NCBI GenBank assembly: GCA_036001425.1
Contig: DASYUI010000035.1
Span: 1,756 to 65,755 of the forward strand
Reading direction: 5' to 3'
Source: Actinomycetota bacterium
GTDB taxonomy: Bacteria; Actinomycetota; UBA4738; CALAEC01
Length of the DNA stretch: 64,000 nt
Every line of letters starts with the position of its first letter. Positions within the stretch are counted from its first letter, which is position 1. The translations under genes were made by a program, and so were the position numbers. Positions 5,929 to 38,678 of this stretch are shown one piece after another. The notes under the pieces were generated by a model that was given only the letters and a program-made list of their open reading frames with translations, was not told the DNA's origin and did no database searches.

Positions 5929-6084
5929 CCTCGTTCCCCCGATATCGACGCCGGACATTCCCGACCGTTCGCCAACGGCTCACGAAAATGGGCATTCCGA
6001 GTCTTGTCTTGGCCCACCCCCTTCTGGTACCGTGGCGCGGTTCTGTGGCCAGCTTGGTCAGCTAACCCGGAGGAAAGCCCGCCC

Positions 6085-8994
6085 GTGGCGTATCCCCAGC
6101 CACACATCGTTCCGGCGAGGATCCGCGTTCCCGCGACCCGCGGACTCCGGCGTGAGCGCCTACTCGGCGCGCTCGACCGGCTCTGGGATCATCGGTTGGC
6201 CCTGGTCGTGGCGCCGGCCGGATCGGGGAAGACCACCCTCCTGTCGCAGTTCGCGTCGGCACTGGAGGGCCCGGTCGCCTGGTACACCGCCGACGGATCC
6301 CACGCCGAGCCCAGTGTGTTCCTCAGCCATCTGGAGCAGGCGGTATGCACGGCCTTCGGAGACGTCCCCCGAGGGTGGGAGTCGGAGGACGCGGCGGCCC
6401 AGTCGCTCGAAGGCTGGGCGGGCACCAGAGGCCTGGTGGTCCTGGACGACCTTCACGCGCTGGAGGGGACACCTGCGGAGGCGGCCCTCGAGCGACTGAT
6501 CGACTACATCCCACCGAACGTGTTCGTTCTGGCGGCTTCCCGCCGGACTCCGGGGTTCAACCTCTCCAGGCTGCGGGTCTCCGGGGCACTCCTCGAGGTG
6601 GGCTCCGACGACCTCCGGTTCCGATCGTGGGAAGTCGAGCGCCTGTTCCGCGACATCCACGGCGAGCCGCTCACCCCTGAGGATCTCGCCGCTCTGACAC
6701 GAGGAACCGAGGGCTGGGCGGCCGGCCTCCAGCTGTTCCACCTGGCGACTCGCGGGAAACCGGTGCACGAGAGCAGGAAGATCCTGGCCGAGTTGCGCAC
6801 GCGATCTCGCCTGGTCCGCGAGTACCTGGCGAGGAACGTCATCGACGAGCTCCCCGAGGCCCTTCGGGCCTTCCTCCTGGATACGTGTGTGCTGGACCGG
6901 ATGTCGGGTCGCTTGTGCGACGAGCTCCTGGGCGTCTCCGCCAGCGAGCTGGTCCTGGAGGAGCTGGAGCGCCGCCAGATCTTCACGTACGGGCTCGAGG
7001 AGGGGTGGTGGCGGTACCACGAAGTGCTGCGGTCACATCTCCAGGTCCAGCTCGTCCAGACGGTCGGCGAGGCCGAGGCTCGGGAACGATACCGGCGAGC
7101 CGGGGAGCTCCTGGAGACGGCGGGCGCGGTGCGGGAGGCCCTGCAGGCCTTCTGCCGCGCGGAGGACTGGGACGCGGTCGACCGGCTCCTGGGGAAGGAA
7201 GGCGAGCTTCTGGCCGATGGTCCCGACGGGTGGCTGGATCTCGTTCCCTCGGACCTCCGGGAAGACGACCCGTGGGTCCTCCTTGCCGCCGCCCGCAGAG
7301 AGAGAGCCCGGGGCAGGTGGCACCCCGCTCAGGAGGCGTACCAGAAAGCGGAGCGGGCGTTCGGGGGTGCCGGCGCGGCGGAGATCTGCCGCGCAGAGCG
7401 CCAGGCCCTGACCTCCTGGATGGAACCGGCATTCGTCCCCATCGACACTCCGTCGGGGGCCGTCCGAGCCGCGGTCTCGCGCGAGCCGCTCCGGGCGAAG
7501 GGATCGTGGCCCGGCGCTCAGGGGGCCCTTGCCCGAGGGATCTGCTCTCTGCTCGCCGGCCAGGTGCTGGACGCCAGACCCGTTCTTCTTTCGGTCGGCG
7601 ACCACCCGGACGCCAGCCCGAGCCTGGTGGCGGGAGCCCGGCTCGCTGCCGCCCTGGCGGCCATGCTGGCCGGTGACCCTGGTGGCGAACGCGAAACCGA
7701 AGCTGCGGCCGAGGAGGCCGAACACCTGGGTATCCTCTGGCTGGCGCGCCTGAGCCGAGCCTCTCTGGCCCTGTCGGACCGCCCCGACGGAGCGTCCGAA
7801 GCGGCGGCGGCTCGGTTGGCGGGCGAGCGCCGGGGCGACCAGTGGGGAACCTCCCTGGCCGCGCTGCTCGAGGGCATGGGGGCGCTCCGGATCGGCGGGA
7901 GCCCGACCGCCGTCCTGGACGTGGCCGTTCAGGGGTTCCGTCACCTGGGTGCGGGGACGCTGGAGGCCTGGGCCCGATCCGCCCATGCGCTGGCGGTGGC
8001 GCGGACCGGAACACCCGAGGCCCGGCAGACCGCTCTCCAGGCTGAGACCTTCGCCCGGGCCGCCATGGTTCGGGGCGCGCAGATGATCGCCTTCCTGGCC
8101 CTGGCGCAGGCTGATCCCGCTCGGGAAGGTGAGCACCGAGCCGTCGCCATGGAGATCGCCAACGAGTGCGGTCTTGCGTTGCCAGAGCCTCCGAGTGCCA
8201 CCCAGGCTCCGTCGGCCCCGTTCCAGATCTGGTGCTTCGGGAGGTTCTCCCTGACGATCGACGGAAAAGCGGCGGACCTGTCGAGCCTTCGGCCACGGAT
8301 CCGCAGGCTGCTTCGGCTCCTGGCCATGGGCGCCGGAGCCCCGATTCATCGAGAGGTCCTCACCGAGGCCCTGTGGCCGGGGGCCGACCCCGAGACCGGT
8401 GGCCGGAACCTCCACGTCGCGATCTCCACGCTCCGGCGCGTGCTGGAGCCGGACCTGCCCAAGGGTGCCGGCAGCCTCATCCTCCGCGAAGGTGAGACCT
8501 ACCGCTTGGCGCTGCCGGAGGACACCTTCGTCGACGTGCTGGAGCTCGATGACCGCTTGGTCGCCGCCCGGGGTGCCCTGGCCCGGAAGGACGCGGAGAC
8601 AGCACTGACGGAGTTCCGCCGGGCCATGGCCTTCTACGTCGGGGACCTGCTGCCGGAGGAGGGGCCCGCCGAGTGGATCGTGGGAGAACGGGAGCGGAGG
8701 CGCCTCGACGTCTCCGAGCTCGCCGGGGCCCTGGCCGAAGCGTTATTGGTCGCGGGCGAGCCCGGCGAGGCCGCGTGGGTGTGCCGGCGGGGTCTCCAGG
8801 TGGACCGGTACCATGATGCCCTGTGGCGCACGCTCGTCCGCGCCTGCGACCAGGCCGGCGACCCCGTCGCCTCAGCCCGGGCGGGCCGCGACTACCAAGC
8901 GCTTCTCCTGGAGCTCGGGCTCCCGCCGTCCTCGAACAGCCAATCGGAGTCTGACGTGGGCGTCGACCCCGACCGGGCTCTTAACAGCTCTTAG
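6085..8994 (+). CDS. MalT-like STAND ATPase with C-terminal SARP module (OmpR-type wHTH + BTAD)
   Basis: Walker A 'VVAPAGSGKTTLLSQFA', Walker B 'LVVLDDLH', and MalT-like 'TEGWAAGLQLF'. The central part is Ala/Leu-rich and TPR-like. C-terminus has 'FQIWCFGRFSLTIDGKAADL...REVLTEALWP...LHVAISTLRRVLEP' (wHTH) and 'DRYHDALWRTLVRACDQAGDPVASARAGRDYQALLLELGLPP' (BTAD). GTG 6085 is preceded by GGAGGAAAG. The ORF-track start at 6004 is an alternative. Confidence 0.85.
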   Translation: MAYPQPHIVPARIRVPATRGLRRERLLGALDRLWDHRLALVVAPAGSGKTTLLSQFASALEGPVAWYTADGSHAEPSVFLSHLEQAVCTAFGDVPRGWESEDAAAQSLEGWAGTRGLVVLDDLHALEGTPAEAALERLIDYIPPNVFVLAASRRTPGFNLSRLRVSGALLEVGSDDLRFRSWEVERLFRDIHGEPLTPEDLAALTRGTEGWAAGLQLFHLATRGKPVHESRKILAELRTRSRLVREYLARNVIDELPEALRAFLLDTCVLDRMSGRLCDELLGVSASELVLEELERRQIFTYGLEEGWWRYHEVLRSHLQVQLVQTVGEAEARERYRRAGELLETAGAVREALQAFCRAEDWDAVDRLLGKEGELLADGPDGWLDLVPSDLREDDPWVLLAAARRERARGRWHPAQEAYQKAERAFGGAGAAEICRAERQALTSWMEPAFVPIDTPSGAVRAAVSREPLRAKGSWPGAQGALARGICSLLAGQVLDARPVLLSVGDHPDASPSLVAGARLAAALAAMLAGDPGGERETEAAAEEAEHLGILWLARLSRASLALSDRPDGASEAAAARLAGERRGDQWGTSLAALLEGMGALRIGGSPTAVLDVAVQGFRHLGAGTLEAWARSAHALAVARTGTPEARQTALQAETFARAAMVRGAQMIAFLALAQADPAREGEHRAVAMEIANECGLALPEPPSATQAPSAPFQIWCFGRFSLTIDGKAADLSSLRPRIRRLLRLLAMGAGAPIHREVLTEALWPGADPETGGRNLHVAISTLRRVLEPDLPKGAGSLILREGETYRLALPEDTFVDVLELDDRLVAARGALARKDAETALTEFRRAMAFYVGDLLPEEGPAEWIVGERERRRLDVSELAGALAEALLVAGEPGEAAWVCRRGLQVDRYHDALWRTLVRACDQAGDPVASARAGRDYQALLLELGLPPSSNSQSESDVGVDPDRALNSS

Positions 8995-26032: not shown

Positions 26033-26659
26033 CTAGATCAGTCCCTGCCGAAGTGCGAAGGCGACCGCGTGGGACCGGTTGCGCAGATGGAACCGGGTGG
26101 TGATGTCGTGGATGATGTTCTTGATCGTCCGCTCCGAGTACGCGAGCTGCTGGGCGATCTCCGCGGTGTCCATTCCTTCGGCCACGAGCTTCAGCACGCC
26201 GAGCTCCCGCTCGGTCAGGCCCGAGAAGGTAAGACCCCGAGGAGCCAGCACATGACGCTGGAGCCTGCCCACCTGAGACAGCAAGCGTCCCAAGAGGTCA
26301 GGTGGAACGGTGCCATCGCCCTGGGCGGCCGCGACCACTGCCCTGGTCAGGATCTCAGGCGTGGCTTCCGAGCGCCGAAGGAGCCCACAGGCGCCCGCCT
26401 CGACCGCCGCCACCAGGCCACCGTCGTCGGGCCGGGCCACGACCAGGACCACCCGAGGACCGCCGCTGCGCTGGATGGCCTTGATGACCCGAAGGGTCTC
26501 ATCGTCGACCTCGTCCGCGGCGACGACCGCGACATCGGCCTGGTCGACCTCGGTCTCGCTCAGGACTTCGAGCTCAGGGCGTCCGCGAAGCTCGGCCGCG
26601 ATCCCCGCCTGTGAGATCGGGTCTCGCGCATAGACGAACACGGGTACGCGCTCCGTCAT
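26033..26659 (-). CDS. LuxR/NarL-family regulator with degenerate (pseudo-)receiver domain
   Basis: C-terminal HTH 'LTERELGVLKLVAEGMDTAEIAQQLAYSERTIKNIIHDITTRFHL'. The N-terminal REC-like fold starts 'VFVYARDPIS', where NarL has 'LLIDDHP'. Confidence 0.85.
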   Translation of the reverse strand: MTERVPVFVYARDPISQAGIAAELRGRPELEVLSETEVDQADVAVVAADEVDDETLRVIKAIQRSGGPRVVLVVARPDDGGLVAAVEAGACGLLRRSEATPEILTRAVVAAAQGDGTVPPDLLGRLLSQVGRLQRHVLAPRGLTFSGLTERELGVLKLVAEGMDTAEIAQQLAYSERTIKNIIHDITTRFHLRNRSHAVAFALRQGLI

Positions 26660-26735
26660 TTCCCCTCCTCCTCCTGCTCAGGTCCGTCGGGCATCCTAGG
26701 AGGGCAATCTTTCCGGGCACTTCACCTGGGCTTAA

Positions 26736-26766
26736 CGGGCATGGGAAGTTGCCCGGATGTTCTCCT
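26736..26766 (+). promoter_or_regulatory. conserved element CGGGCA-N8-TGCCCGGATGTTCTCCT (copy A)
   Basis: 23 fixed positions are identical to copy B at 32185..32215. It lies in the divergent region between the LuxR gene and the 26814 operon. Confidence 0.5.
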
Positions 26767-26813
26767 CGGTGGCTCTAAAGGGCTATTGACCTGCCTGGTA
26801 GTATCCTCGCGTC

Positions 26814-28097
26814 GTGGGCGCGACTGCCATGCTGCGGCCGGCCACCATTCGCGTGGATCCTGGCGGAGAGACCAGCTTCGACATCAGCGTTCGAAACACT
26901 GGGACGATTGTCGATGAGTTCTCCTTCGAGATCCGCGGGGATCCGGCTCCCTGGGCCGAGGTCGAGCCGGGGGTCCTCCGGCTGTTCCCCGGCGCGGAGG
27001 GGATCGTCACGGTCAGGTTCCGCCCTCCACGGACGCCGACGACGCGGGGGGGTCTCACACCCTTCGGCGTGAAGGTCATCTCCAAGGAGGACCCCGAGGG
27101 CACGATCGTCGAAGAGGGGACCCTCGAGGTCGGCGAGTACAGCGACAACAACGTGGAGATGATCCCCCGGACCTCCCGCGGGCGGATGGGCGCCTCTCAC
27201 GACGTCTACATCGACAATCGCGGGAACCAGCGGGTCAGCACGACCATCGACGCCACCGATCCCGACGACAACCTCCAGTTCCAGATCAGCCCGCCGTCGA
27301 CGACGGTCGACCCGGGGAACGCCACTCGGGTGAGGGTCCGGGCCCAGCCGAAGAAGCGGTTCCTCCGAGGAGCGCCGAAGACACATCCGTTCAAGGTGAT
27401 CGTCCAGCCGGAGGGCGACCAGGCCCTCCAAGCCGACGGCACCATGCTTCAGGAGCCGCTGATCCCGAAGTGGCTCATCCCGGCGCTGCTCGCCCTGGCG
27501 GCGCTGGTGCTGATCTGGTTCTTCCTCCTCAAACCGGCGGTTGAGACGGCAGCTGTGAGCGCCGTCCCCAAGAACGTCGCCAAGAACGACGAACTGGCCG
27601 CCGCCGAGGAGCGGATGAACGAGGCTCTCGCAGCCCAGGCCGCGGCGGCCGAGAAGCAGGCCAAAGCATTGCAGAAGCAGATCGACGAGCTGGCGGGTGG
27701 GGCCGCGGCCGGCGAAACCAGCGACCAGCGACTCGACCCCAGCAACGAGGCGTTCCTGGACAAGAACAACTTCGAAGCGTCGTTCACCGTCCCCAAGGGC
27801 AAGACCCTCAAGATCACCGACCTGGTCCTGCAGAACCCCGCGGGAGCGACCGGACGAATCCTCATCATCCGTGATGATCTGGTGGATGACGCGAAGGACG
27901 CCACGCTCCTCGTGTCAGCTCTCGAGAACTTCCGAGACCTCGACTACCATTTCGTGACTGCGGTGGAGATCGGGGAGGGTCAGAACCTGCTGGTGAGGGT
28001 GACGTGCGACAAGCGCGCCGGACAGACAGTCGCCGAGGCCCAATCCGCCTGTAATCAGGCGGCCGTGTACTACACCGGTTCTCTGGCCAAGGCGTAG
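26814..28097 (+). CDS. bitopic membrane protein: two Ig-like (CARDB/NEW3-like) N-terminal domains, one TM, coiled coil + beta-rich C-terminal domain
   Basis: 'ATIRVDPGGETSFDISVRNTGTIVDEFSFEIRGDPAPWAEVEPGVLRLFPGAEGIVTVRFRPP' and 'VYIDNRGNQRVSTTIDATDPDDNLQFQISPPSTTVDPGNATRVRVRAQP'. TM 'WLIPALLALAALVLIWFFLL'. There is no N-terminal signal peptide, so the N-terminus is probably cytoplasmic. GTG start; ATG 26829 is an alternative. Confidence 0.8.
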   Translation: MGATAMLRPATIRVDPGGETSFDISVRNTGTIVDEFSFEIRGDPAPWAEVEPGVLRLFPGAEGIVTVRFRPPRTPTTRGGLTPFGVKVISKEDPEGTIVEEGTLEVGEYSDNNVEMIPRTSRGRMGASHDVYIDNRGNQRVSTTIDATDPDDNLQFQISPPSTTVDPGNATRVRVRAQPKKRFLRGAPKTHPFKVIVQPEGDQALQADGTMLQEPLIPKWLIPALLALAALVLIWFFLLKPAVETAAVSAVPKNVAKNDELAAAEERMNEALAAQAAAAEKQAKALQKQIDELAGGAAAGETSDQRLDPSNEAFLDKNNFEASFTVPKGKTLKITDLVLQNPAGATGRILIIRDDLVDDAKDATLLVSALENFRDLDYHFVTAVEIGEGQNLLVRVTCDKRAGQTVAEAQSACNQAAVYYTGSLAKA

Positions 28098-28099
28098 CC

Positions 28100-29731
28100 G
28101 TGCGGCTCCGCAGCCTCTCCCTTGCCCTCCTCCTCAGCGTCTTCCTAACCGGGCTGGGACTCCCGATGGCCGCGGCCGACCCATCCGATCCGACGCCCGA
28201 CCCAACACCGACTTCGGACCCGACCCCCAGCCCGGATCCCTCCACCGATCCGACCCCGGACCCCCAGCCGACCGTGACTCCGCCCGACGACGGTGGGGCG
28301 GGAGACAACCCTCCCCCCACGCCCCCTCCCGATCAGGACGGCAAGGACGGCAAGAGCGGCAAGGGGAAGCACGGCCAGAACGGCAACCGGGACGGGAAGC
28401 GGAAGAAGGATCCGTTCGCCATGGCCGGGCCGCAAAACACGGCCACGCTCGTGTCTCTGCTCGCCGAGCTGACCCAGCGGGGAATGTCCCTCGAGAAGGC
28501 CTTCCTCAAGGTGGTCGGACCCTTCCCCGTCGCGGGCCTGGCCTGGTGGAGCGACGACTGGCACGCGCCCCGGTGTTGCCCCTTCCCGCACCTCCATCAG
28601 GGCCTCGACATCTTCGCGCCGATGGGCACCCCCTTGGTAGCGGCGGCGGATGGGTACATCAGCCAGAAAGTCAATTCCCCCTCGGCTACAGGGTTCGGCC
28701 TCGAGGTCACCGACGCCCGGAACGTCCAGTACTTCTACGCGCACCTATCGGCCTTCGAACCGGGCATCGAGGTAGGAACCCACGTCGAGATGGGCCAGGT
28801 CATCGGGTACGTGGGTGACACCGGGAACGCCCGGGGGACCATCCCCCACGTGCACTTCGAGCGCCAGCCAGACGGCGTTCCGGCCCCGCCCAAGCCCTGG
28901 GTCGACCGGTGGCTCAGGATCGCCGAGCGGAAGGCCATGCTGCTCGTGCAGGAGGTCACGGGGAGGAAGCCCAAGGTGGAGCGCCTGACCTTCCGGCTCA
29001 CCAGACTGTTCGACCTGGTCGATGCGGAGCGCACCGACCTCGACGACGCGGCCACCGGGGACGCCGGGGAAATCCTCGTGCTGACCGGCCTCCATCCGGC
29101 TGCCACGTACGACATGGCTCGGGACACTGCCGGGGCCATGGCCTGGGAGATCGACTGGGGCGACGAGGCCGTCGACCAGATCGCCACCGGGATCAAGGCG
29201 TATCGGCAGGAGTTGACCGAGCAGACGCTCATGGGCATCCTCCACGATCCCGAAGAGGGGCAAACGGCGATCCCAGCGGGCGGGATGCTTCCCGGAAGCG
29301 AGGATGTGGGCCTGGCCGAAGGCATCGGCGATCCAATGGCACCCGTCGCCACGGAGAGCGGCGCACTGGTCAACGTGCCCTCCGTTCCCGGGGGCGTGAG
29401 CGCGCACGACGGGACCGGCACGGAGGGCAGCCTCCCTGTCGGCGCGCCGGGGGCCCCGGTCGCGTCGGGCAGCCAGGTCGCCGATACGGGCACCGGCTCT
29501 TCGGTTCCCTCGATCGGCAGGGAGAGCGACACGTCGAGCTCATGGAGGGCGGGTGTCGGGCCCGGCCTGGTCAGGGTCCTTGCCCTCTACAGTGCGTTCT
29601 CGACCGGGCTCCCGGGCATGACCCAGACCCTGTGGCACGAGATCCTGGCGGCGGTGCAGGATGAGGGCGCACGCGGCCTCCTGGGAAACGAGACCGAGGC
29701 CCAGTTCCCGGCCGCCGCAGGAAGGCCCTAG
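28100..29731 (+). CDS. secreted M23 family metallopeptidase
   Basis: Signal peptide 'MRLRSLSLALLLSVFLTGLGLPMAAA' and a DPTP-rich linker. M23 motifs 'HQGLDIFAPMGTPLVAAADG' and 'GDTGNARGTIPHVHFE'. The GTG lies 2 nt after the upstream stop. Confidence 0.9.
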   Translation: MRLRSLSLALLLSVFLTGLGLPMAAADPSDPTPDPTPTSDPTPSPDPSTDPTPDPQPTVTPPDDGGAGDNPPPTPPPDQDGKDGKSGKGKHGQNGNRDGKRKKDPFAMAGPQNTATLVSLLAELTQRGMSLEKAFLKVVGPFPVAGLAWWSDDWHAPRCCPFPHLHQGLDIFAPMGTPLVAAADGYISQKVNSPSATGFGLEVTDARNVQYFYAHLSAFEPGIEVGTHVEMGQVIGYVGDTGNARGTIPHVHFERQPDGVPAPPKPWVDRWLRIAERKAMLLVQEVTGRKPKVERLTFRLTRLFDLVDAERTDLDDAATGDAGEILVLTGLHPAATYDMARDTAGAMAWEIDWGDEAVDQIATGIKAYRQELTEQTLMGILHDPEEGQTAIPAGGMLPGSEDVGLAEGIGDPMAPVATESGALVNVPSVPGGVSAHDGTGTEGSLPVGAPGAPVASGSQVADTGTGSSVPSIGRESDTSSSWRAGVGPGLVRVLALYSAFSTGLPGMTQTLWHEILAAVQDEGARGLLGNETEAQFPAAAGRP

Positions 29732-29735
29732 TCGG

Positions 29736-31811
29736 CTACCGGTTCACGAACTTGGGCGGCTGCCCTGTCGCCGGAGTGACCATGAAGTCGGCTTCCGCGA
29801 GTACCCCGGGTCCCTTGGCGCGCAGGAGCCTCGGTCCGGTGATGTCATTGTGGAAGACCAGCACCTGGCCGACGATGTTCCCGTCGACATCCGACACGAT
29901 CTCGAACCGGCCGAGCCCTGGCTTCCACTTGAGGACGATCGTCCTCTCCGGCGGGAACAGGCTCCCCTCCACGAACGGCACGAACCCGGGTGGCCCGATG
30001 TTCGGGCTCAGGGATACGATCGGCTGGAAGCCGCCTCCCAGCAAGAGTGCGGTGTCCGCTGCCGGTGATTTCGCTCGAGTGACCGCGAACAGTGCCGAGC
30101 GGACCCCCGAGGCCTTCGGGCGGAACTGGACGCCGACGAAACACTCCTCCTCGGGATGGAGCCGCACGTTCGAGCAGCCGTCGGTGTGGATGATGAAGTC
30201 GCCGGGGTTACCGGGGCCCAGTACGTCGATGGAAGCGATAGTCACCGGCCCGTCTCCCTCGTTCGCCACGCTCACGAGCTGTTCCGGGCTGGTCGTGGTG
30301 ACGATCCGGGTGTCGAACTGGATGGGGATCGGATCGATCTGGACGGTCGGCTGACGGTCGCGCACGAAGACGTCCTGGACATCGTTCCTGTCGCATCCCG
30401 CGTCGCAGATTCCGTCTTCGTTCGAGTCTTGTCCGATGAGATTCGATGCGGTCGACACGAAGGCCACGTACTGTCCGGAGTCCGAGGCCGCCGGATCACT
30501 ATTCACGCTCCGCGGGGGGGTCTCGTCGCCGTCGGCGCTGATGGAGACTCGGTTGGTCCGGCCAACGAACTGGTCGCGGACGTAGACGTCCTGCGCTCGG
30601 TTCGTGTCTCCCCGCCGAAGGGTCGAAGCCAGGGACTCGAACGCCACGTATCGGCCATCCGCGGTCATGTCGGGGTCCGTGCTCCGACCGTTTCCCGGAT
30701 TCCCGTTGGAAGCCACCGAGGCCTTGATCGTCGTCTCCGCGCTCCGGTCACGGATGAAAATGTCCCGGACACCGGACGCTGGGAGCGTCTCCAGCAACGG
30801 GAGCATGTTCGTCGCGTCGCTGGCGAAGGCCACCCATCGACCGGCCGCGTCGATGGTGGGTTGGACGCTCGCGCCGTTGGCCTGGGCCTCGGAGGTGCTG
30901 ATCGACACCCGTGAGGTGCTCTGCGTCGCGAGGTCCCTCAAGTAGATATCGCTGACGTTGTTGGTATCTGCCCCGATGAGATTGGTTGCCGTGCTGCTGA
31001 AAGCCACGAGCTGGCCGTCGCCCGAAAGCGCGGGGTCCACGCTGTCGTCGTCGCCAGCGGCACCGCTGGCCCCCGACGCCCGCGACGCAAGCTGCGTATC
31101 CACCAACCCGGCCTCGTCGTAAACCCCGTCGAGATCGGTGTCCCGGTCCCTGACGAACACATCGAAGTTGTCGCTGGTCTTGGCGGGGTCGAGGTCGTCG
31201 GAGTTGCTCACGAAGGCCACGAACCGCCCGTCCGCCGAGAGGTCGGGCTGGGTGTTGGAGCTGGAAAACCTCCCGTCGTCGTCCACGGAGACCATCACCG
31301 TGGCCACGCCACGGGCCTCGTCGAAGGTGCCGTTCCGGTCCGTGTCCCGGTCGCGGACGTACACGTAGGGCCCCCCGCAAAACTCGGAGCAGTCGGGTAT
31401 GAAGTTGGTGGCCTCGGACACGAAGGCAACGAAGCGACCATCGGCGCTGATCGCTGGGGAGTTGGAGTCGCCGTTCCCCTGCTCTCCACTGGTCAATACG
31501 GAGACCCGGACGGTGGTCCCAGCCGTGATGTCCCGGACGAATACGTCCTCGACGCCGTTCGAGTCTTCGGGGACGAGATTCGACGCGTCCGTAGCGAACG
31601 CAACCCATTGGCCGCCCGCCGAGATCGCCGGCTGAGCGCTGCCCCGGTTGGCCTGGTCTTCATCGGAGGACAGGGAAGCCAGGAACGTCGTCCCGGGGCC
31701 CTCGGACCGTGCCTGGCTCACGAACAGGAGCGACGCCACCAGGGCCAGGACGAGCGGCAGTCCCATCCTGGCTCGCCGGGAAAGGGCGCGTTTCCGCTGG
31801 CCCGGGGGCAT
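29736..31811 (-). CDS. secreted PD40/TolB-like beta-propeller repeat protein with C-terminal Ig-like (choice-of-anchor-D-like) domain
   Basis: Repeated 'S.SADGR[FYW]VAF.S.A.NL...D.N...DV[FY][VL]RD' blocks. Signal-like 'RKRALSRRARMGLPLVLALVASLLFVSQA'. Start is ambiguous (31766, 31811, 31886 or 31907). Confidence 0.85.
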   Translation of the reverse strand: MPPGQRKRALSRRARMGLPLVLALVASLLFVSQARSEGPGTTFLASLSSDEDQANRGSAQPAISAGGQWVAFATDASNLVPEDSNGVEDVFVRDITAGTTVRVSVLTSGEQGNGDSNSPAISADGRFVAFVSEATNFIPDCSEFCGGPYVYVRDRDTDRNGTFDEARGVATVMVSVDDDGRFSSSNTQPDLSADGRFVAFVSNSDDLDPAKTSDNFDVFVRDRDTDLDGVYDEAGLVDTQLASRASGASGAAGDDDSVDPALSGDGQLVAFSSTATNLIGADTNNVSDIYLRDLATQSTSRVSISTSEAQANGASVQPTIDAAGRWVAFASDATNMLPLLETLPASGVRDIFIRDRSAETTIKASVASNGNPGNGRSTDPDMTADGRYVAFESLASTLRRGDTNRAQDVYVRDQFVGRTNRVSISADGDETPPRSVNSDPAASDSGQYVAFVSTASNLIGQDSNEDGICDAGCDRNDVQDVFVRDRQPTVQIDPIPIQFDTRIVTTTSPEQLVSVANEGDGPVTIASIDVLGPGNPGDFIIHTDGCSNVRLHPEEECFVGVQFRPKASGVRSALFAVTRAKSPAADTALLLGGGFQPIVSLSPNIGPPGFVPFVEGSLFPPERTIVLKWKPGLGRFEIVSDVDGNIVGQVLVFHNDITGPRLLRAKGPGVLAEADFMVTPATGQPPKFVNR

Positions 31812-32094
31812 GCCTCCGGGCAGGGTGGAGCTGCCTTCGCCACGCGAAGGCCGGGATCCCTCGGTATGCGGGCCCATCAGGTCCATGCTCGCCGCAATGC
31901 CCCCCAACCCGGCAGAGGAGCCAGTGTAGCCCCTGGGGCAAGGGCCGGTTCCCCATGGGGCAGGTCAACCCTCGGCCGGATCGTGCTCAGCACGCCGCCG
32001 AAGGCGACCCGGTGATCGCCCAACACCCAGAGGTCACGGCTCCGTTATCCCGTCCCCGATGGGACGAGGTGATCAACTTAGTCATATCGGGCTA

Positions 32095-32123
32095 TTGAGC
32101 AACTTCTGCGCGGCCCGTAGTCT
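32095..32123 (+). promoter_or_regulatory. sigma70-like promoter candidate for the RTX gene
   Basis: TTGAGC (32095-32100), a 17-nt spacer, then TAGTCT (32118-32123). This would give a 5' UTR of about 250 nt containing element copy B. Confidence 0.3.
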
Positions 32124-32184
32124 CGTCTTTCCGACCTGGCCACCTGAATGAGTCATTCATCGCTCGCGTCTCCGGATGTCCGAA

Positions 32185-32215
32185 CGGGCAGCGCTTCCTG
32201 CCCGGATGTTCTCCT
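32185..32215 (+). promoter_or_regulatory. conserved element CGGGCA-N8-TGCCCGGATGTTCTCCT (copy B)
   Basis: Identical arms, 8-nt spacer and 17-mer as copy A. An extra CCGGATGTC lies 30 nt upstream (32172-32180). Confidence 0.5.
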
Positions 32216-32378
32216 TGTTGCCTCTGAGGTGAGCCACAATCGGCCAGTACGCTCAACCCAAGTGGTTGCTCAGGTTTCTGTTCGCTTGCCGTCAGGCGGC
32301 CGGACCGTCGTGCCCGGAGCCGCCATTTCCTTTGATCCATCGAGCGGGACCTTTGGCCCGCGAAGGAGGTCCCCGTAG

Positions 32379-35300
32379 ATGGCTCTCAGTCACAGGCTCC
32401 GCTCTTCTGGACGCACCCGTCTGGTTGCCGGCTTGGTCGTCACAGCAGCGGCCTTGGCCTATTCCCTGATCCTTGCTCCACGGGCATTCGCCGTCAGCAG
32501 CTGCAGCAACGATGGTGCCGGCAACCTCTTCGTGATCCTCAATGCGGCTGGTGACGACGCCAGGGTCGTGCTGCTCGCCGGGACCATCCAGGTCTTCGAC
32601 GCTCCGGCTGCAGACGGTACGGGCGGCACGCTGCTCGCATGTGGAGGAGCGACTCCCACCACGTCCAACATCAACACCATTCACTTCGTGTATGGGGGCG
32701 GGAACGGGGGGGACGAGCTCGTCTCCATCGACATGTCGGGCGGGGCCTTCCTCGACGCCACACCAGTCGGAGAGGGCGATCTCACTGAGGAGATCGAGTT
32801 CAACGTTCCCGACATGGGTCTGGGGGCCGACGCCCTCGTCATCATCGGCGGGGCGGGAGCTGACCGGATCACATTCGGAGCCGCGGGCATCAACCCGAAC
32901 ACCGATGCGAGCCCTCCTCCTCCGCCCTCTCCCCCCGACGACTCTGACGTGGACATCTTCCTGGCCAGCCCAGCCAATACCGAGACACACCGTGTGGACG
33001 CGGGGGCGGGCGCGGACGTCATAAGCGGCGCCGGAGACGCGGTTACGGGAGGCGCCTTCGCTTCGCCGCTCACGTTCGACGGAGGGACCGCTAACGACAC
33101 GCTGACCGGTGGCACCGCGGCCGACAACCTGTCGGGTGCGGCAGGCGACGACACCCTCAACGGTGGAACCGGGGCCGACACGCTCTCCGGAGGAGACAAC
33201 AACGACACCATCAGCGGCGGCGACGGCGCGGACGTCCTCGATGGGGGGAACGGCGACGACGACCTTACGGGGAACGAGCAAAACGATGCCATCGATGGGA
33301 GCGCCGGCGACGACGATCTGACTGGCGGTAACGGCGACGACACCCTCGACGGGGGGGCGGACGCCGACACGGTCAACGGTAGCGATGGGATAGACGTCCT
33401 CAGCGGAGGATCGGGGGGCGACACCGTTTCCGGAGGACCGGGCAACGACACCCTGGCCGGAGGACCGGGCAACGACACCCTGGCCGGTGGCGGCGACAAC
33501 GATACCGGCGATTACTCCGCCGCAGCGGGAGCGGTGACGGTCAACCTGACCACCGGTGTCGGTACGGGCGAGGGCGCCGACACGCTGACGGAGATAGAGA
33601 ACCTGACCGGCTCGGCCTTCGCCGACTCCCTCACCGGGGACAACAGCGTTGCGATCGGCAACCTGCTCCAGGGGGGCGCGGGCAACGACACCCTCGACGG
33701 AGCCGCCGGCACCGACAACGTGTCGGGAGGTTCCGGGAACGACACGCTCGACGGTGGTCTCGGGGCCGACACCTTCGCCGGGGGCTCCGAAACCGATACC
33801 GCTACCTATGCGGCCCGGGTGGCCACGGTATTCGTATCACTCGACGGCTCCCCCAACGACGGAGAAGCCCTTGAGGCTGACAACGTTGGGCTGGACATCG
33901 AACGAGTCGTCGGCGGCAGCGGCGACGACGAGCTGACCGGCGGAAGTGGCAACGACACGCTGGAGGGAGGACCGGGCCAGGACACGCTCGTGGGAGGAGC
34001 GGGTAACGACAGCTTCGACGGCGGCACCGGACTGGAAGACAAAGCCGACTACAACGCCGCCACCGGTTCAGTCACGGTGGACCTCTCCTTGGGAACCGCC
34101 AGCGGACAGGGCTCCGACACGCTTAGCGCCGTCGAAAACGTAACGGGTTCTCCCTTCGCCGACACTCTTGTCGGCGACAGTGTCGCCAATGACCTGTTGG
34201 GCGATGCCGGCAACGACACGCTGGTCGGCAGAGCGGGGAACGACGGCCTCGACGGAGGCCTCGGCACCGACACCGTCGACTACTCCTCTGCCGGGGGGGT
34301 CACGGTCAATCTGGCGACCGGGACCTCAACAGGCGACGGCGCGGACACCTTGACCTTGATTGAGAACGTCACCGGGTCTCCGGCCGACGATGTGATCACC
34401 AGCGACAACCTCACGACCAACACCAATCTTCTCTCCGCTGGGAACGGAAACGATGCCGTCGCTGGTGGCGATGGGGTGGAGATCATCCTCGGAGGAGCCG
34501 GCAACGACGTGCTCAGCGGCGGGGCCGAGAACGACAACATCGACGGCGAGCAAGGCCTTGACACTATGAACGGAGGCTTGGGTAACGATTCACTGGACGG
34601 TGGCGACGGCAACGACTCTCTGACAGGCGGAGCGGGCGACGACCCCCTCGACGGCGGCGCCGGAACCGACACGGCGTTCTACTCAGGCGCTGGAGCCCCG
34701 GTGAACGTGAACCTGGCCGCCGGAACGGCAACGGGCGGCGACGGGACCGACTCCCTCTCCCTGATCGAGAACGTAACCGGCTCTACCTTCGGCGACACCC
34801 TGACTGGCGACGGAGGGAACAACCTCCTTGCTGGAGGTGCGGGTGCCGACAACATGTCCGGGGCTGACGGCGACGATAGCCTCAACGGAGGACCGGGCCC
34901 CGACACCATGGACGGCGGAAACGGCGCCGACAGCCTCAACGGAGACACCGAGAATGACACACTGGTCGGCGGCGCCGGGAACGACTCTCTCGTCGGCGGG
35001 CTGCATATCGATTTCGCCGACTACTCGGGCTCCTCCTCTCCCATGACCGTGAATCTCGGGGCCGGGTCCGCTACCGGACAAGGAACGGACACGCTCGCCG
35101 GCGTCGAGAATGTCCTGGGTTCCGCCTTCGACGATGTCATCACCGGTGACGGACTGGGGAACGAACTCTCCTCCCTTGGCGGTAACGACGTCGTGGCGGG
35201 GGCCCTGGGCAACGACACGCTCTCCGGTGGCGGCGGAATCGATAATGTCGATTTCTCACCTTCGGCCACCCCAGTCACGGTCAACCTTGGGGCGGGGTCC

Positions 35301-38300
35301 GCGACGGGGGAAGGAACGGATAGCCTCTCGGGCTTCGAGAACGTCACCGGGTCGGCCTTTGGGGACACCCTGACCGGAGACGCACTGAACAACGTCCTGG
35401 CGGCCGGAGACGGAACGGACTCGCTGGACGGTGGTCTCGGGGATGACGCTTTGAATGGCGGAGCAGGAACCGACACGGCAGTCTTCACCGCCGCAACGAG
35501 CGGAGTCACGGTGAACCTATTCGCCGGGATCGCCATCGGTCAGGGCTCGGACACTCTCTCCGGGGTCGAAGACGTCATCGGCTCCAACTTCGCGGACGAT
35601 CTCCGCGGAAACCTCGGCCCCAACACACTTCACGGGGCAGACGGTGCCGACAGCCTGGAGGGCAATGCCGGCAACGACTTCCTGTTCGGCGGCGACCAGG
35701 CCGACATCCTGAACGGCGGCGACGGAAACGACTCTCTCGATGGAGAGAACCACAACGACGTGCTGGTCGGTGCGGCGAACGACGACAGCCTTACGGGAGG
35801 CATCGGCAGCGACACGGCCGACTACTCCACTGCTCCGGGGCTCATGACCGTGGACATCGATAACGGGACCGCGACCGGTCACGGTAACGACACTCTCACG
35901 ACCGTCGAGAACGTCACCGGGTCGGCTTTTGGGGACGATCTCCGAGGGGACGGAGGTCAGAACACCCTGAGCGGTGGAAGCGGGAACGACACCGTCGCGG
36001 GCCGCGACGGCGACGACTCGCTGGACGGCGGATCCGGCACGGACATCGCGGACTATTCGGAGGCGGGGGCCGGAGTCACCGTCGACCTGTCTGTCGGGAT
36101 AGCGCAGAACACGTTCGGCGCGGGCACCGACACCCTCTCAACGCTCGAGAACCTGACGGGTTCTGCGTTCAACGACACTCTGCGGGGCAACGCGTCGGCA
36201 AACGTCCTCGACGGTGGGTTCGGCGCCGACGACATGGCCGGAGGAGCGGGGACCGACACGGCGACTTACCAGAGCCGCGTCAGCTCAGTCACCGTGCTCA
36301 TCGACGGTCTTGCGAACGACGGCAACCCAGCGGCCGACGGCGGAGCAGACAACGTGAGGACCGACGTCGAGAACGTGATCGGGGGCGCCGGCGACGACAC
36401 CCTTATCGGAAGCCTCCTCGACAACGAGCTCCGCGGAGGTGCAGGCGAGGACACCTTGTCCGGCGGGACTGGCGTCGATGCGCTGTTCGGGGAGAACGGC
36501 AACGACGAGCTGGCGGGTGGAGCCGGCGCTGACCTGCTGGACGGCGGTGCGGACGACGACCAACTCTCAGGCGGAACCGAGGACGACTCTCTCCAGGGCG
36601 GTTCCGGCATCGACACCATGGACGGCGGCACGGGCAACGACTCCCTGGTCGGCGGGGCAGATGGCGACCTCCTGGATGGCGGCGATGGGAACGACTCGCT
36701 CGACGGCGGGGAAGGCATCGACGATCTCTCCGGTGGGATCGGCGACGACATCATCAGCGGCGGCCCCGCGGCTGACGTCTTCGCCGGCGGCAGCGGCCGT
36801 GACACTGCGACGTATGAGACGCGCACAGAGTCGGTGAAGGTTACCCTCGACGGCCTCGCGGACGACGGGACCGACCTGACACTCGACGGAGTCTCTGAGG
36901 AAGGCGACAACGTTCCCACCGACATCGAGGACGTGATCGGTGGGCTCGGCGACGACCACCTGATCGGCAACGACCTGGTGGATAACGGACTCTCCGGCGG
37001 AGGTGGTACCGACATCCTCGAGGGTCTCGGCGGAAACGATACCCTCGATGGAGGCGCGGGAGACGATCAGTCTTCGCCAGCCATCCTCGGCGGACCCGGA
37101 GATGACACGCTCATGGGCGGCCTGGGCAACGACACCCTTGACGGAGGTCCGGGCATCGACAGCGTCAGTGGTGGAACCGGGAACGACACCCTGATCGGTG
37201 ACGAGGGGGCGGACACGCTGTCCGGCGGTGCGGGGCCGGACGACCATGCCGACTACTCCAGCAGGGCGGCCCCTCTGGCCATCTCGCTCGACGGTGTGGC
37301 AAACGACGGCTCCGACTTCGACTTCGATGGCGTCGGCGACGAGGGTGACAACGTGGCGATCGATGTCGAGAACGTGACCGGCGGATCCGGAGACGACATC
37401 ATCACGGGAAGCCTCCTGGCCAACGATCTGTTCGCCGGACCGGGCAACGATGTCATCGATGGTGGCTTGGGAACCGATGTCCTCGCCGGAGGCCCCGGAG
37501 TGGACACTGCCAGCTACAGGACCCGCGCGGCGGCTTTGAACGTCAGCCTGGACGCCGTTGCAAACGACGGCCAGGCCGGGGAGAACGACGCGGTCGGCGT
37601 TGCTACTGGTGATCTCGCGGACGACCCCGACATCGAGAACGTGATCGGCGGTGCGGGCAGCGACTCCATCACGGGCAGCACTGTGGGAGCCCCAAACACG
37701 ACACCCAACCAGCTCGAGGGTGGCGCCGGAAACGACACCATCGACGGTGGCGATGGGGACGACCTCCTGTTCGGTGGGCTGGTAGCGTCTCCGACTCCCC
37801 CGCCGGCGGATGGGAACGACCTACTGGTCGGCGGTCTCGGGGACGACGATCTCCGGGGCGGCCTCAACAACGACAGCCTGTCGGGCGGCGATGGGGACGA
37901 CTCCCTCCTGCCGGGACTCGGGGACGACTCCGTCGACGGTGGGGCGCATCTCGTCGAAGGGGACACGGTCTCCTTCGCTGGCGCGGCCGGGCCCGGGGGC
38001 GTCACGGTCAACCTCCTGGACAACCCCGCCACCCCGACCGTCGAGGGGACGGCGACCGGAGAGGGAACCGATTCTCTCGCCATCGGCACCATCGAAAACG
38101 TGGTCGGGTCTAACTTCGCCGACATAATCCGCGCTGACAGCGTAGCGAACGTCCTGACCGGTGGATCGGGAGCCGACCTGCTCGACGGACGCGGCCAGAA
38201 CGACACCCTGTCCGGTGGCGCCGGCAACGACGATCTGTTCGGACGCTCAGGCAACGACACCCTGAACGGCGGCTCCGGCGCCGACCTGCTCGTCGGCGAG

Positions 38301-38678
38301 AGCGGGCGCGACGACCTGAATGCGGGCGCCGGCAGCGGCGACGTGCTGAAGGGCGGTACGGATGAAGACGACCTCAACGGCGGAGACGGTGCCGACCTCC
38401 TCGACGGCGGACCACAGGCCGACGTCCTGAACGGCGGCGAAGGGACCGGTGCCGACATCCTGCGGGGTGGCGACGGCGCTGACGACCTGCTCGGTGGGTC
38501 TGGCCGCGACGACCTCTTCGGCGAGGGCGGGAACGACGACCTGTTCGGCAACCGAGGGCCCGACGACCTCGACGGCGGGGCGGGCAACGACGATCTGAAT
38601 GGGGGTCCGGGGAACGACCGGTGCGCACAGCGCGGGGGTTCGGGCGCCGAGATCTCCTGCGAGGCGCCACTCCCCTGA
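32379..38678 (+). CDS. giant (2099 aa) RTX-type calcium-binding repeat protein with N-terminal Sec signal
   Basis: RBS GAAGGAGG. Signal 'RLVAGLVVTAAALAYSLILAPRAFA'. Dozens of GGxGxD nonapeptides ('GGAGNDTLDGG'). Recurrent modules of the form 'ADYS...VTVNL..G.ATG.G.DTL..IENV.GS.F.D.L.GD'. Confidence 0.95.
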   Translation: MALSHRLRSSGRTRLVAGLVVTAAALAYSLILAPRAFAVSSCSNDGAGNLFVILNAAGDDARVVLLAGTIQVFDAPAADGTGGTLLACGGATPTTSNINTIHFVYGGGNGGDELVSIDMSGGAFLDATPVGEGDLTEEIEFNVPDMGLGADALVIIGGAGADRITFGAAGINPNTDASPPPPPSPPDDSDVDIFLASPANTETHRVDAGAGADVISGAGDAVTGGAFASPLTFDGGTANDTLTGGTAADNLSGAAGDDTLNGGTGADTLSGGDNNDTISGGDGADVLDGGNGDDDLTGNEQNDAIDGSAGDDDLTGGNGDDTLDGGADADTVNGSDGIDVLSGGSGGDTVSGGPGNDTLAGGPGNDTLAGGGDNDTGDYSAAAGAVTVNLTTGVGTGEGADTLTEIENLTGSAFADSLTGDNSVAIGNLLQGGAGNDTLDGAAGTDNVSGGSGNDTLDGGLGADTFAGGSETDTATYAARVATVFVSLDGSPNDGEALEADNVGLDIERVVGGSGDDELTGGSGNDTLEGGPGQDTLVGGAGNDSFDGGTGLEDKADYNAATGSVTVDLSLGTASGQGSDTLSAVENVTGSPFADTLVGDSVANDLLGDAGNDTLVGRAGNDGLDGGLGTDTVDYSSAGGVTVNLATGTSTGDGADTLTLIENVTGSPADDVITSDNLTTNTNLLSAGNGNDAVAGGDGVEIILGGAGNDVLSGGAENDNIDGEQGLDTMNGGLGNDSLDGGDGNDSLTGGAGDDPLDGGAGTDTAFYSGAGAPVNVNLAAGTATGGDGTDSLSLIENVTGSTFGDTLTGDGGNNLLAGGAGADNMSGADGDDSLNGGPGPDTMDGGNGADSLNGDTENDTLVGGAGNDSLVGGLHIDFADYSGSSSPMTVNLGAGSATGQGTDTLAGVENVLGSAFDDVITGDGLGNELSSLGGNDVVAGALGNDTLSGGGGIDNVDFSPSATPVTVNLGAGSATGEGTDSLSGFENVTGSAFGDTLTGDALNNVLAAGDGTDSLDGGLGDDALNGGAGTDTAVFTAATSGVTVNLFAGIAIGQGSDTLSGVEDVIGSNFADDLRGNLGPNTLHGADGADSLEGNAGNDFLFGGDQADILNGGDGNDSLDGENHNDVLVGAANDDSLTGGIGSDTADYSTAPGLMTVDIDNGTATGHGNDTLTTVENVTGSAFGDDLRGDGGQNTLSGGSGNDTVAGRDGDDSLDGGSGTDIADYSEAGAGVTVDLSVGIAQNTFGAGTDTLSTLENLTGSAFNDTLRGNASANVLDGGFGADDMAGGAGTDTATYQSRVSSVTVLIDGLANDGNPAADGGADNVRTDVENVIGGAGDDTLIGSLLDNELRGGAGEDTLSGGTGVDALFGENGNDELAGGAGADLLDGGADDDQLSGGTEDDSLQGGSGIDTMDGGTGNDSLVGGADGDLLDGGDGNDSLDGGEGIDDLSGGIGDDIISGGPAADVFAGGSGRDTATYETRTESVKVTLDGLADDGTDLTLDGVSEEGDNVPTDIEDVIGGLGDDHLIGNDLVDNGLSGGGGTDILEGLGGNDTLDGGAGDDQSSPAILGGPGDDTLMGGLGNDTLDGGPGIDSVSGGTGNDTLIGDEGADTLSGGAGPDDHADYSSRAAPLAISLDGVANDGSDFDFDGVGDEGDNVAIDVENVTGGSGDDIITGSLLANDLFAGPGNDVIDGGLGTDVLAGGPGVDTASYRTRAAALNVSLDAVANDGQAGENDAVGVATGDLADDPDIENVIGGAGSDSITGSTVGAPNTTPNQLEGGAGNDTIDGGDGDDLLFGGLVASPTPPPADGNDLLVGGLGDDDLRGGLNNDSLSGGDGDDSLLPGLGDDSVDGGAHLVEGDTVSFAGAAGPGGVTVNLLDNPATPTVEGTATGEGTDSLAIGTIENVVGSNFADIIRADSVANVLTGGSGADLLDGRGQNDTLSGGAGNDDLFGRSGNDTLNGGSGADLLVGESGRDDLNAGAGSGDVLKGGTDEDDLNGGDGADLLDGGPQADVLNGGEGTGADILRGGDGADDLLGGSGRDDLFGEGGNDDLFGNRGPDDLDGGAGNDDLNGGPGNDRCAQRGGSGAEISCEAPLP

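Follow-up and report, generated by a model that had tools for sequence, protein, structure and literature searches.

How does a gene for a giant RTX protein come to share a sequence element with an operon beside a CIS, and does that element act as DNA or as RNA? The question is raised by the window analyzed here (the whole stretch of 64,000 nt), in which one composite element occurs twice, once beside the gene of a cluster regulator (copy A) and once in the long gap before the RTX gene (copy B). A sequence-only reading of the window had taken copy B as a link between the RTX gene and the CIS-adjacent regulon, and had placed it within a long RTX leader downstream of a sigma70-like promoter. The comparisons described below support the first proposal and argue against the second.

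Layout of the locus and of the intergenic gap

The gene presumed to be regulated encodes a 2099-aa RTX beta-roll protein with 37 HemolysinCabind stretches and occupies 32379-38678 on the + strand (ATG at 32379). It is preceded by a 470-nt gap (31908-32378), the left border of which is a PD40 beta-propeller gene on the - strand (29736-31907). Further to the left is an operon on the + strand that encodes an Ig-like membrane protein and an M23 peptidase (26814-29731, hereafter the Ig-membrane/M23 operon). Two regulator genes are candidates for encoding the protein that binds the element. The first is a gene for an atypical response regulator of the NarL/LuxR family with a GerE HTH (26033-26659, - strand), and the second encodes a SARP-like regulator of 996 aa with AAA_16, Trans_reg_C and BTAD domains (6004-8994).

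Within the gap, copy B, both hexamers of the upstream promoter, an extra half-copy of the element and a pair of GGGGCA sites were all found where the sequence-only reading had put them. The RTX Shine-Dalgarno, GAAGGAGG, which had been given as about 32361-32368, is present on the + strand and was read from the sequence at 32362-32369. It directly follows a conserved hairpin, GCGGGACC-TTT-GGCCCGC (32344-32361, + strand).

The GGGGCA sites face the PD40 gene (31935-31940 and 31957-31962; TGCCCC on the PD40 strand, that is the - strand) and lie 22 bp apart. A CGGGCA pair beside copy A, at 26714 and 26736, has the same 22-bp spacing. On the PD40 side, a -10-like hexamer, TACACT (31923-31928, - strand), lies 6 nt downstream of the proximal GGGGCA site. 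This geometry is unlike that of copies A and B, and a role of the pair in activation or repression of PD40 can thus only be inferred.

Two copies of one composite element

Copy B has the form AACGGGCA-N8-TGCCCGGATGTTCTCCT and spans 33 bases on the + strand (32183-32215). It contains an inverted half-site pair, CGGGCA (32185-32190) and TGCCCG (32199-32204), and a degenerate third half-site, TCTCC (32210-32214). Copy A, also on the + strand (26734-26766), lies between the regulator gene and the Ig-membrane/M23 operon, and the two copies are identical at 25/25 specified positions. When up to 3 mismatches were allowed, the composite pattern was found at exactly 2 sites in the 64-kb window. A third copy was not found by relaxed searches of the whole assembly to which the window belongs (G000; 1.63 Mb, 39 contigs, 67% complete).

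Could this resemblance be accidental, or the functionless relic of a local duplication? The recurrence of an exact 17-mer is by itself little surprise, as about one such pair is estimated from composition in a 64-kb window of 68% G+C. The additional 8-mer at a fixed spacing, however, gave 0 sites in 100 shuffles, and both copies lie between genes and point the same way. Moreover, both copies are conserved above the flanking genes in a genome of the same genus, and the motif and its geometry are kept as far as Streptomyces. An accident or a dead relic is on these grounds a most improbable explanation.

CGGGCA-N8-TGCCCG was not enriched over a reversed control in genome-wide counts from five relatives. 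A phylum-wide search for CGGGCA-N8-TGCCCGGATG returned about twice the control count, mostly chance matches, and among the 20 contexts inspected only those in two Acidimicrobiia-like MAGs (G433 and G299) were true homologues. The half-copy CCGGATGTC (32172-32180, + strand) is an extra partial copy of the element core and its function is doubtful. CCGGATGT occurs 60 times on the + strand genome-wide, and the half-copy is not conserved because the same-genus genome carries CTGGAAGTC there. The 9-mer GGCTATTGA has 3 occurrences in the genome, two of them in the regulatory regions of copies A and B.

Conservation of the gap in same-genus genomes

The most informative comparison is with G001, a genome of the same genus with approximately 80% nucleotide identity across the locus. 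It has both element copies at syntenic places, both promoter-like hexamer pairs, and both GGGGCA sites, which confirms copy B as a real second copy. Conservation is unevenly distributed along the gap. From left to right, identity between G000 and G001 is 88% on the PD40 side with the two GGGGCA sites (31908-31965), 46% in the following spacer (31966-32054), 84% in the block around the upstream promoter (32055-32130), and 81% in 32131-32182. The element itself (32183-32218) reaches 92%, the highest value in the gap. The remainder (32219-32378) ranges from 77 to 90%, with 90% in the part that holds the hairpin and the Shine-Dalgarno (32331-32378), and the first 62 nt of the RTX ORF fall to 52%. 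The flanking genes show 74-80% nucleotide identity, and the RTX protein is 49.5% identical to its G001 orthologue, versus 72-98% for neighboring proteins. Since 32055-32378 is better conserved than the neighboring genes, the region upstream of RTX is under stronger constraint than those genes.

Another member of the genus, G002, has a regulator 84% identical to that of the window but no PD40-RTX pair, and it has lost most of the Ig-membrane gene. Its copy A retains CGGGCA-N16-CGGGCA-N8-TGCCC, without the GGATGTTCTCC part.

A fixed distance between the site and a -10 hexamer

Downstream of copy B, a hexamer of the type TANNNT is placed at a distance that recurs in distant relatives. TACGCT (32248-32253, + strand) starts 45 nt after the TGCCC of copy B and is kept in G001. 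No other TANNNT occurs in the 75 nt past copy B, and just one more lies on the + strand of the gap; we propose TACGCT as the -10 hexamer of a promoter termed P2. At copy A, TAGTAT (26799-26804, + strand) likewise stands 45 nt after TGCCC. The general layout is [CGGGCA-N7/8-TGCCC], 43-45 nt, and then TANNNT.

This layout extends well beyond the genus. In G433 and G299, which are distant and encode regulators 66-68% identical to that of the window, CGGGCA-N8-TGCCCGAATGTC lies between the regulator gene and a divergent Ig-membrane gene. Two Streptomyces genomes (regulator 46-49% identical) have C[GA]GGCA-N7-TGCCC followed by ATTGCCCTCG in the same place. The distance from TGCCC to the start of TANNNT is 45 or 46 nt in these two MAGs and in both first-examined Streptomyces genomes. 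A search of 151 Streptomyces genomes for the site in its Streptomyces form placed it, in 18 of them, with a LuxR homologue (45-51% identical) on one side and an Ig-membrane homologue on the other. Each of these 18 sites has TANNNT at +44 or +45, with a GTG 6 nt later, versus 0/10 with TANNNT at +44 to +46 among chance matches of the pattern with other neighbors. The composite motif was hence seen before Ig-membrane homologues in G001, G002, G433, G299, and 18 Streptomyces genomes, and the offset of +44 to +46 is fixed in 22 sites of the copy A type as well as in copy B of both G000 and G001. TANNNT has a frequency of 0.001 per position in the genome, and so a match at +45 of copy B would arise by chance with a probability of approximately 0.002-0.01. 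As this -10 hexamer lies downstream of copy B at the offset fixed in the family, the element is probably upstream of the transcription start, and its earlier description as part of a long transcribed leader is not upheld.

Promoters of the copy A type have a start codon 6-9 nt after the -10 hexamer, which suggests leaderless transcripts. The gene behind copy A, which has no evident Shine-Dalgarno, is most likely leaderless to judge from this spacing. P2 is different in this respect: its predicted transcription start near 32260-32261 would leave a 5' UTR of about 119 nt that carries the conserved hairpin and the Shine-Dalgarno, unlike the leaderless type. P2 has no recognizable -35. The promoters of the CIS sheath and of the first CIS gene have TGCCC/GGGCA sites arranged otherwise, with no TANNNT at the +45 offset, so the geometry belongs to a subclass of sites only.

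The candidate regulator and its binding site

The regulator encoded beside copy A has a GerE HTH and shows full-length similarity to VraR, ChrA, DesR, NarL, and DevR. Its receiver domain is missing the usual acidic pair and has arginine in place of the conserved lysine; this probably makes it an atypical regulator that is independent of phosphorylation. Across 14 orthologues, which range from this MAG to Streptomyces, the recognition helix hardly varies, and this fits a half-site that is likewise conserved. Orthologues adjoin CIS ATPase, DUF4255, and sheath genes in Acidimicrobiia-like MAGs and in Streptomyces.

The half-site CGGGCA is not known to resemble the NarL or DevR boxes. The architecture of the element nevertheless resembles NarL/FixJ-family sites, such as the NarL heptamers and DevR/DosR boxes, in having short half-sites that are both inverted and direct and that are spaced by helical turns; the family differs from the present case in the atypical receiver domain of the regulator found here. 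A further half-site of this kind appears to be present in the CU tract of the element (UUCUCCU), as GGATGTTCTCCTCG of G000 and GGACATTGCCCTCG of Streptomyces match at 10/14 positions. On this alignment the tract reads as a degenerate third half-site of the TGCCC type, one helical turn after the second.

The regulator has counterparts in Streptomyces. SCO4263 and SlpR represent the cluster-situated LuxR-type activator of the Streptomyces class IId CIS (PMC2000904, PMC8505568, PMC10020575). In S. coelicolor, transcription of the sheath operon depends on SCO4263, which was shown to be an activator (PMC2000904), and in S. lividans slpR is needed for particle formation (PMC8505568). The DNA-binding site of SCO4263/SlpR is not defined in these three papers (PMC2000904, PMC8505568, PMC10020575), and the motif described here is consequently a prediction. 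In a comparison made with cluster homologues of Streptomyces, the window's regulator was 46-50% identical to CIS-adjacent LuxR proteins, and the shared composite site and -10 distance before the divergent Ig-membrane gene of the 18 genomes constitute a second likeness. The systems differ in that the composite site is single-copy in the sampled Streptomyces, whereas a second copy before RTX was seen only in this genus.

Taken with the fixed offset, these observations make it reasonably probable, in our judgment, that copy B is a DNA-level site of the cluster's NarL-family regulator and serves as an upstream activator site of P2. The element would then be an array of CGGGCA/TGCCCG half-sites, namely an inverted pair with an 8-bp spacer and a degenerate direct third half-site about one helical turn further on, and it would span approximately -75 to -46 of an activator-dependent P2 with TACGCT as its -10 hexamer. 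The binder would be the SCO4263/SlpR orthologue encoded 5.5 kb away, beside copy A. In its active form it would recruit RNA polymerase to the promoters of both the Ig-membrane/M23 operon and the RTX gene, and synthesis of the giant secreted RTX protein would coincide with that of the CIS-flanking envelope module. We infer the identity of the binding protein, activation upon binding, and the use of P2 as a start. In more general terms, the sequence comparisons suggest that the element is most likely an ordinary transcription-factor site for a known kind of cluster regulator. Because the composite site and the -10 geometry are common to the RTX gene and the Ig-membrane/M23 promoter, the regulon link proposed by the sequence-only reading is supported at the level of predicted sites.

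The same site and the same P2 might be served by a different protein, either the 996-aa SARP-like regulator or an unlinked factor, which we consider quite unlikely. Conservation of the SARP-like gene speaks for it: the gene is part of the cluster here and is found in relatives too, between the Ig-membrane and LuxR genes. Direct repeats at 11- and 22-bp spacing, which are typical of OmpR-type winged-helix binders including SARPs, are also present. The inverted-repeat core, on the other hand, suits a GerE-type dimer, and it is the LuxR gene that is immediately divergent from copy A in this genus and in the corresponding place in the two distant MAGs and Streptomyces. In addition, SARP repeats are normally found about 8 bp from the -10 region, whereas 45 nt separate the sites described here from it.

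The putative upstream promoter P1

The putative sigma70-like promoter noted earlier, here termed P1, consists of TTGAGC (32095-32100) and TAGTCT (32118-32123) on the + strand, separated by 17 nt, and lies in a conserved AT-richer block (32055-32130). The CGGGCA of copy B starts 62 nt past its -10 hexamer. Both hexamers are identical in G001, and the block that holds them contrasts in its 84% identity with the 46% of the spacer upstream. P1 matches 7/12 consensus positions at its 17-nt spacing and was not called by a promoter scanner. TAGTCT does fit the looser TANNNT rule. A minus-strand pair, TTGCTC-N16-TAAGTT, overlaps P1 and could, by its sequence, serve PD40.

If RTX were transcribed from P1, with a start near 32130, copy B would lie at approximately +55 to +85 and the bound regulator would act as a roadblock that represses RTX, although it activates at copy A. 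The conservation of the P1 hexamers and their surroundings in G001 speaks for such an arrangement, as do the position of TAGTCT as one of the only two TANNNT on the + strand of the gap and the conservation of 32055-32378 above the neighboring genes. Against it, copy B has the orientation and the -10 distance of at least 20 activator-type sites, which would have to be a coincidence of the low probability estimated above (about 0.002-0.01). The imperfect consensus and the silence of the scanner weigh in the same direction, and the orthologous regulator is known as an activator only. Repression from P1 is for these reasons unlikely to be the main function. The activator model at P2 does not by itself explain the conservation of 32055-32182 including P1 (81-84%), and the two models can coexist as a promoter switch.

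RNA, peptide and other promoter readings of the gap

The sequence-only reading had further suggested that the UUCUCCU of the element could pair with the RTX ribosome-binding site. An RNA-level role of this kind would have the element form a hairpin (GGGCAG...CUGCCC) with its CU-rich tract either pairing with the Shine-Dalgarno or attenuating transcription from P1. Some features do recall structured leaders, riboswitches, and anti-Shine-Dalgarno elements: the gap is 470 nt long, a GC hairpin of 5-6 bp is possible in the element, and UCUCCUU is complementary to AAGGAGG. Most comparisons, however, point away from these systems. The putative 265-nt leader folds no better than shuffles (z -1.1 in G000, z -1.3 in G001), the minimum-energy folds of the two genomes differ, and in neither genome does the minimum-energy or the centroid fold contain the proposed pairing.

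The sixth pair of the element stem is broken in 3/4 copies (copy B of G001 and both A copies), and sequence changes thus lend the stem no support. A search of the window against Rfam gave no match at the gathering threshold, nor did 31850-32450 give one at E<=1. A terminator scanner reported no terminator-like site at 32186-32220, and its single + strand prediction within the gap (32106-32120) does not exceed chance (3 found versus 3.0 expected). The copy A gene looks leaderless and is without a Shine-Dalgarno. Distant relatives retain the half-sites and their spacing and do not share the CU tract, and in Streptomyces the tract aligns with a DNA half-site. Unlike a riboswitch, the element is here probably upstream of the transcription start. 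We therefore regard a function as RNA as very unlikely, and the pairing with the ribosome-binding site is not supported.

Small open reading frames were also considered. A 76-aa ORF on the + strand and an 82-aa ORF on the - strand of the gap stay uninterrupted in G000 and G001 alike; they were nevertheless rejected as genes. Substitutions are distributed over the codon phases as 16/9/11, which is no coding signature, the differing codons comprise 7 synonymous and 21 non-synonymous cases, and GC3 is 0.61 versus 0.79 in RTX. The sequence comparisons lend no support to a function of the element at the level of RNA or of a peptide.

Two other promoter classes were tried and set aside. A sigma-54 promoter requires a spacing of 12 bp, and GG and GC are 13 bp apart in both copies. 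For an ECF-type promoter, judged by the general consensus AAC...GTT, the spacing of about 21 nt is too long.

Giant RTX-like proteins beside the CIS in relatives

Besides its repeats, the RTX protein of the window has a signal-peptide-like N-terminus. Classical RTX substrates of type I systems have nonapeptide repeats, a C-terminal secretion signal, and adjacent ABC/MFP genes, and they have no N-terminal signal peptide.

The sequence-only reading had raised the question of whether RTX genes neighbor CIS loci in relatives, and they do so in a related form. In six Acidimicrobiia-type loci (L103-L108), which have the same membrane protein, regulator, and CIS, the gene immediately upstream of the Ig-membrane homologue encodes a giant repeat protein. 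After the Ig-membrane gene come the SARP-like and LuxR genes and the CIS operon. The giant proteins have weak HemolysinCabind repeats and at least one has a signal-peptide-like N-terminus; one of them, with 2905 aa, matches the RTX protein of the window at a blastp E value of 1e-16. In these relatives the operon has a propeller-repeat gene ahead of the giant gene, and in G666 the stop and start codons of the two genes overlap. Giant RTX-like genes thus stand beside this CIS type repeatedly, and this recurrent association lends support to the regulon link.

The element itself is less widespread at this position. Its presence in related RTX leaders was borne out in G001 and did not extend to the Acidimicrobiia-type relatives, where it was not found before the giant-protein operon in the one upstream region reached. 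A dedicated predicted activator site before the RTX gene is accordingly seen only in this genus.

A broader role may be proposed tentatively, and we rate it as rather doubtful at this stage. Class IId (cytoplasmic) CIS may have in the RTX-like protein a conserved partner at the envelope that is co-regulated with them and acts alongside the bitopic Ig-domain membrane protein, the M23 peptidase, and a beta-propeller protein. By sensing or remodeling the envelope, these proteins could couple its state to CIS firing or to CIS-linked cell death, and in this genus RTX would have been wired in by its own copy of the activator site.

Implications for the CIS regulon

The present analysis adds to the sequence-only reading the conserved -10 distance, promoter P2, the CU tract as a putative third half-site, and the recurrent RTX-like neighborhood. 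The composite site and its -10 hexamer at 44-45 nt, shared from Streptomyces to an uncultured actinobacterium, provide a concrete prediction of the binding site of SCO4263/SlpR. The second copy before RTX extends the predicted regulon beyond the injection machine. If the regulator-site reading is true, the RTX gene would be under the same switch as the membrane-protein operon. Copy B and the recurrent giant RTX-like neighborhood together nominate a new accessory component of the CIS.

The divergent RTX gene and its conserved control region

The RTX gene (window 32379-38678) was compared with its counterpart in G001, a genome of the same genus (locus L016, 11712-18209). The two RTX proteins are only 49.5% identical, against 72-98% for the neighbouring proteins, and the region upstream of RTX is 84% conserved, with nucleotide homology ending exactly at the RTX start codon. 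RTX is a fast-evolving secreted protein preceded by a conserved control region.

G000, the assembly that holds the window, has three copies of the 9-mer GGCTATTGA: at 26781-26789 and 32091-32099, in the regulatory regions of copies A and B of the composite element, and on the minus strand at G000:C17:6696. The copy A- and copy B-region 9-mers both extend to GGGCTATTGA[CG]C, and their position relative to the element differs between the two regions. The 9-mer is kept in G001 but not in G002, a third genome from this genus. Between the putative promoter P1 and copy B, at 32145-32159, lies TGAATGA-G-TCATTCA, an inverted repeat with perfect 7-bp arms; it is kept only in part in G001, where its counterpart is GAATGAATCATCT.

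At the G002 locus (L047, contig C15, 5400-8100), the M23 and phosphoribosyltransferase genes have no PD40-RTX pair between them, the Ig-membrane gene is reduced to about 58 codons, and copy A is without its GGATGTTCTCC part, with a spacer to the -10 hexamer that is 8 nt shorter. In Acidimicrobiia-type relatives, a propeller-like gene built of DG.GYWLVASDGGIFSFGDA.F.GSTGG repeats precedes the giant RTX-like gene. Its stop overlaps the start codon of the latter in G666 (L138, 1-575; contig C66); the copy in G667 (contig C25, upstream of L105) looks frameshifted, possibly through assembly errors.

Regulators and promoters of the CIS cluster

The NarL-family regulator P0001 (26033-26659, minus strand) has YARDP in its receiver-like domain where an acidic pair is usual, and an invariant Arg at the receivers' conserved Lys position. 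Because of both replacements, its sequence suggests an atypical, phosphorylation-independent response regulator. In 18 Streptomyces genomes (L141-L163, around position 1500-1580), an Ig-membrane homologue lies divergent to the gene of the CIS LuxR regulator. Ahead of this homologue stands a composite site present in single copy, GGCA-N7-TGCCC-N4-RTTGCCCTCS, and the gene appears to be leaderless, TANNNT being followed after 6 nt by GTG.

At its far end, the window's CIS cluster carries the gene of a 996-aa SARP-like regulator (6004-8994, plus strand; AAA_16, Trans_reg_C and BTAD). In Acidimicrobiia-type relatives, a protein of equal length and domain order is encoded between the Ig-membrane and LuxR genes (L107, 6795-9785). 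The SARP-like protein is a second conserved regulator of the CIS cluster.
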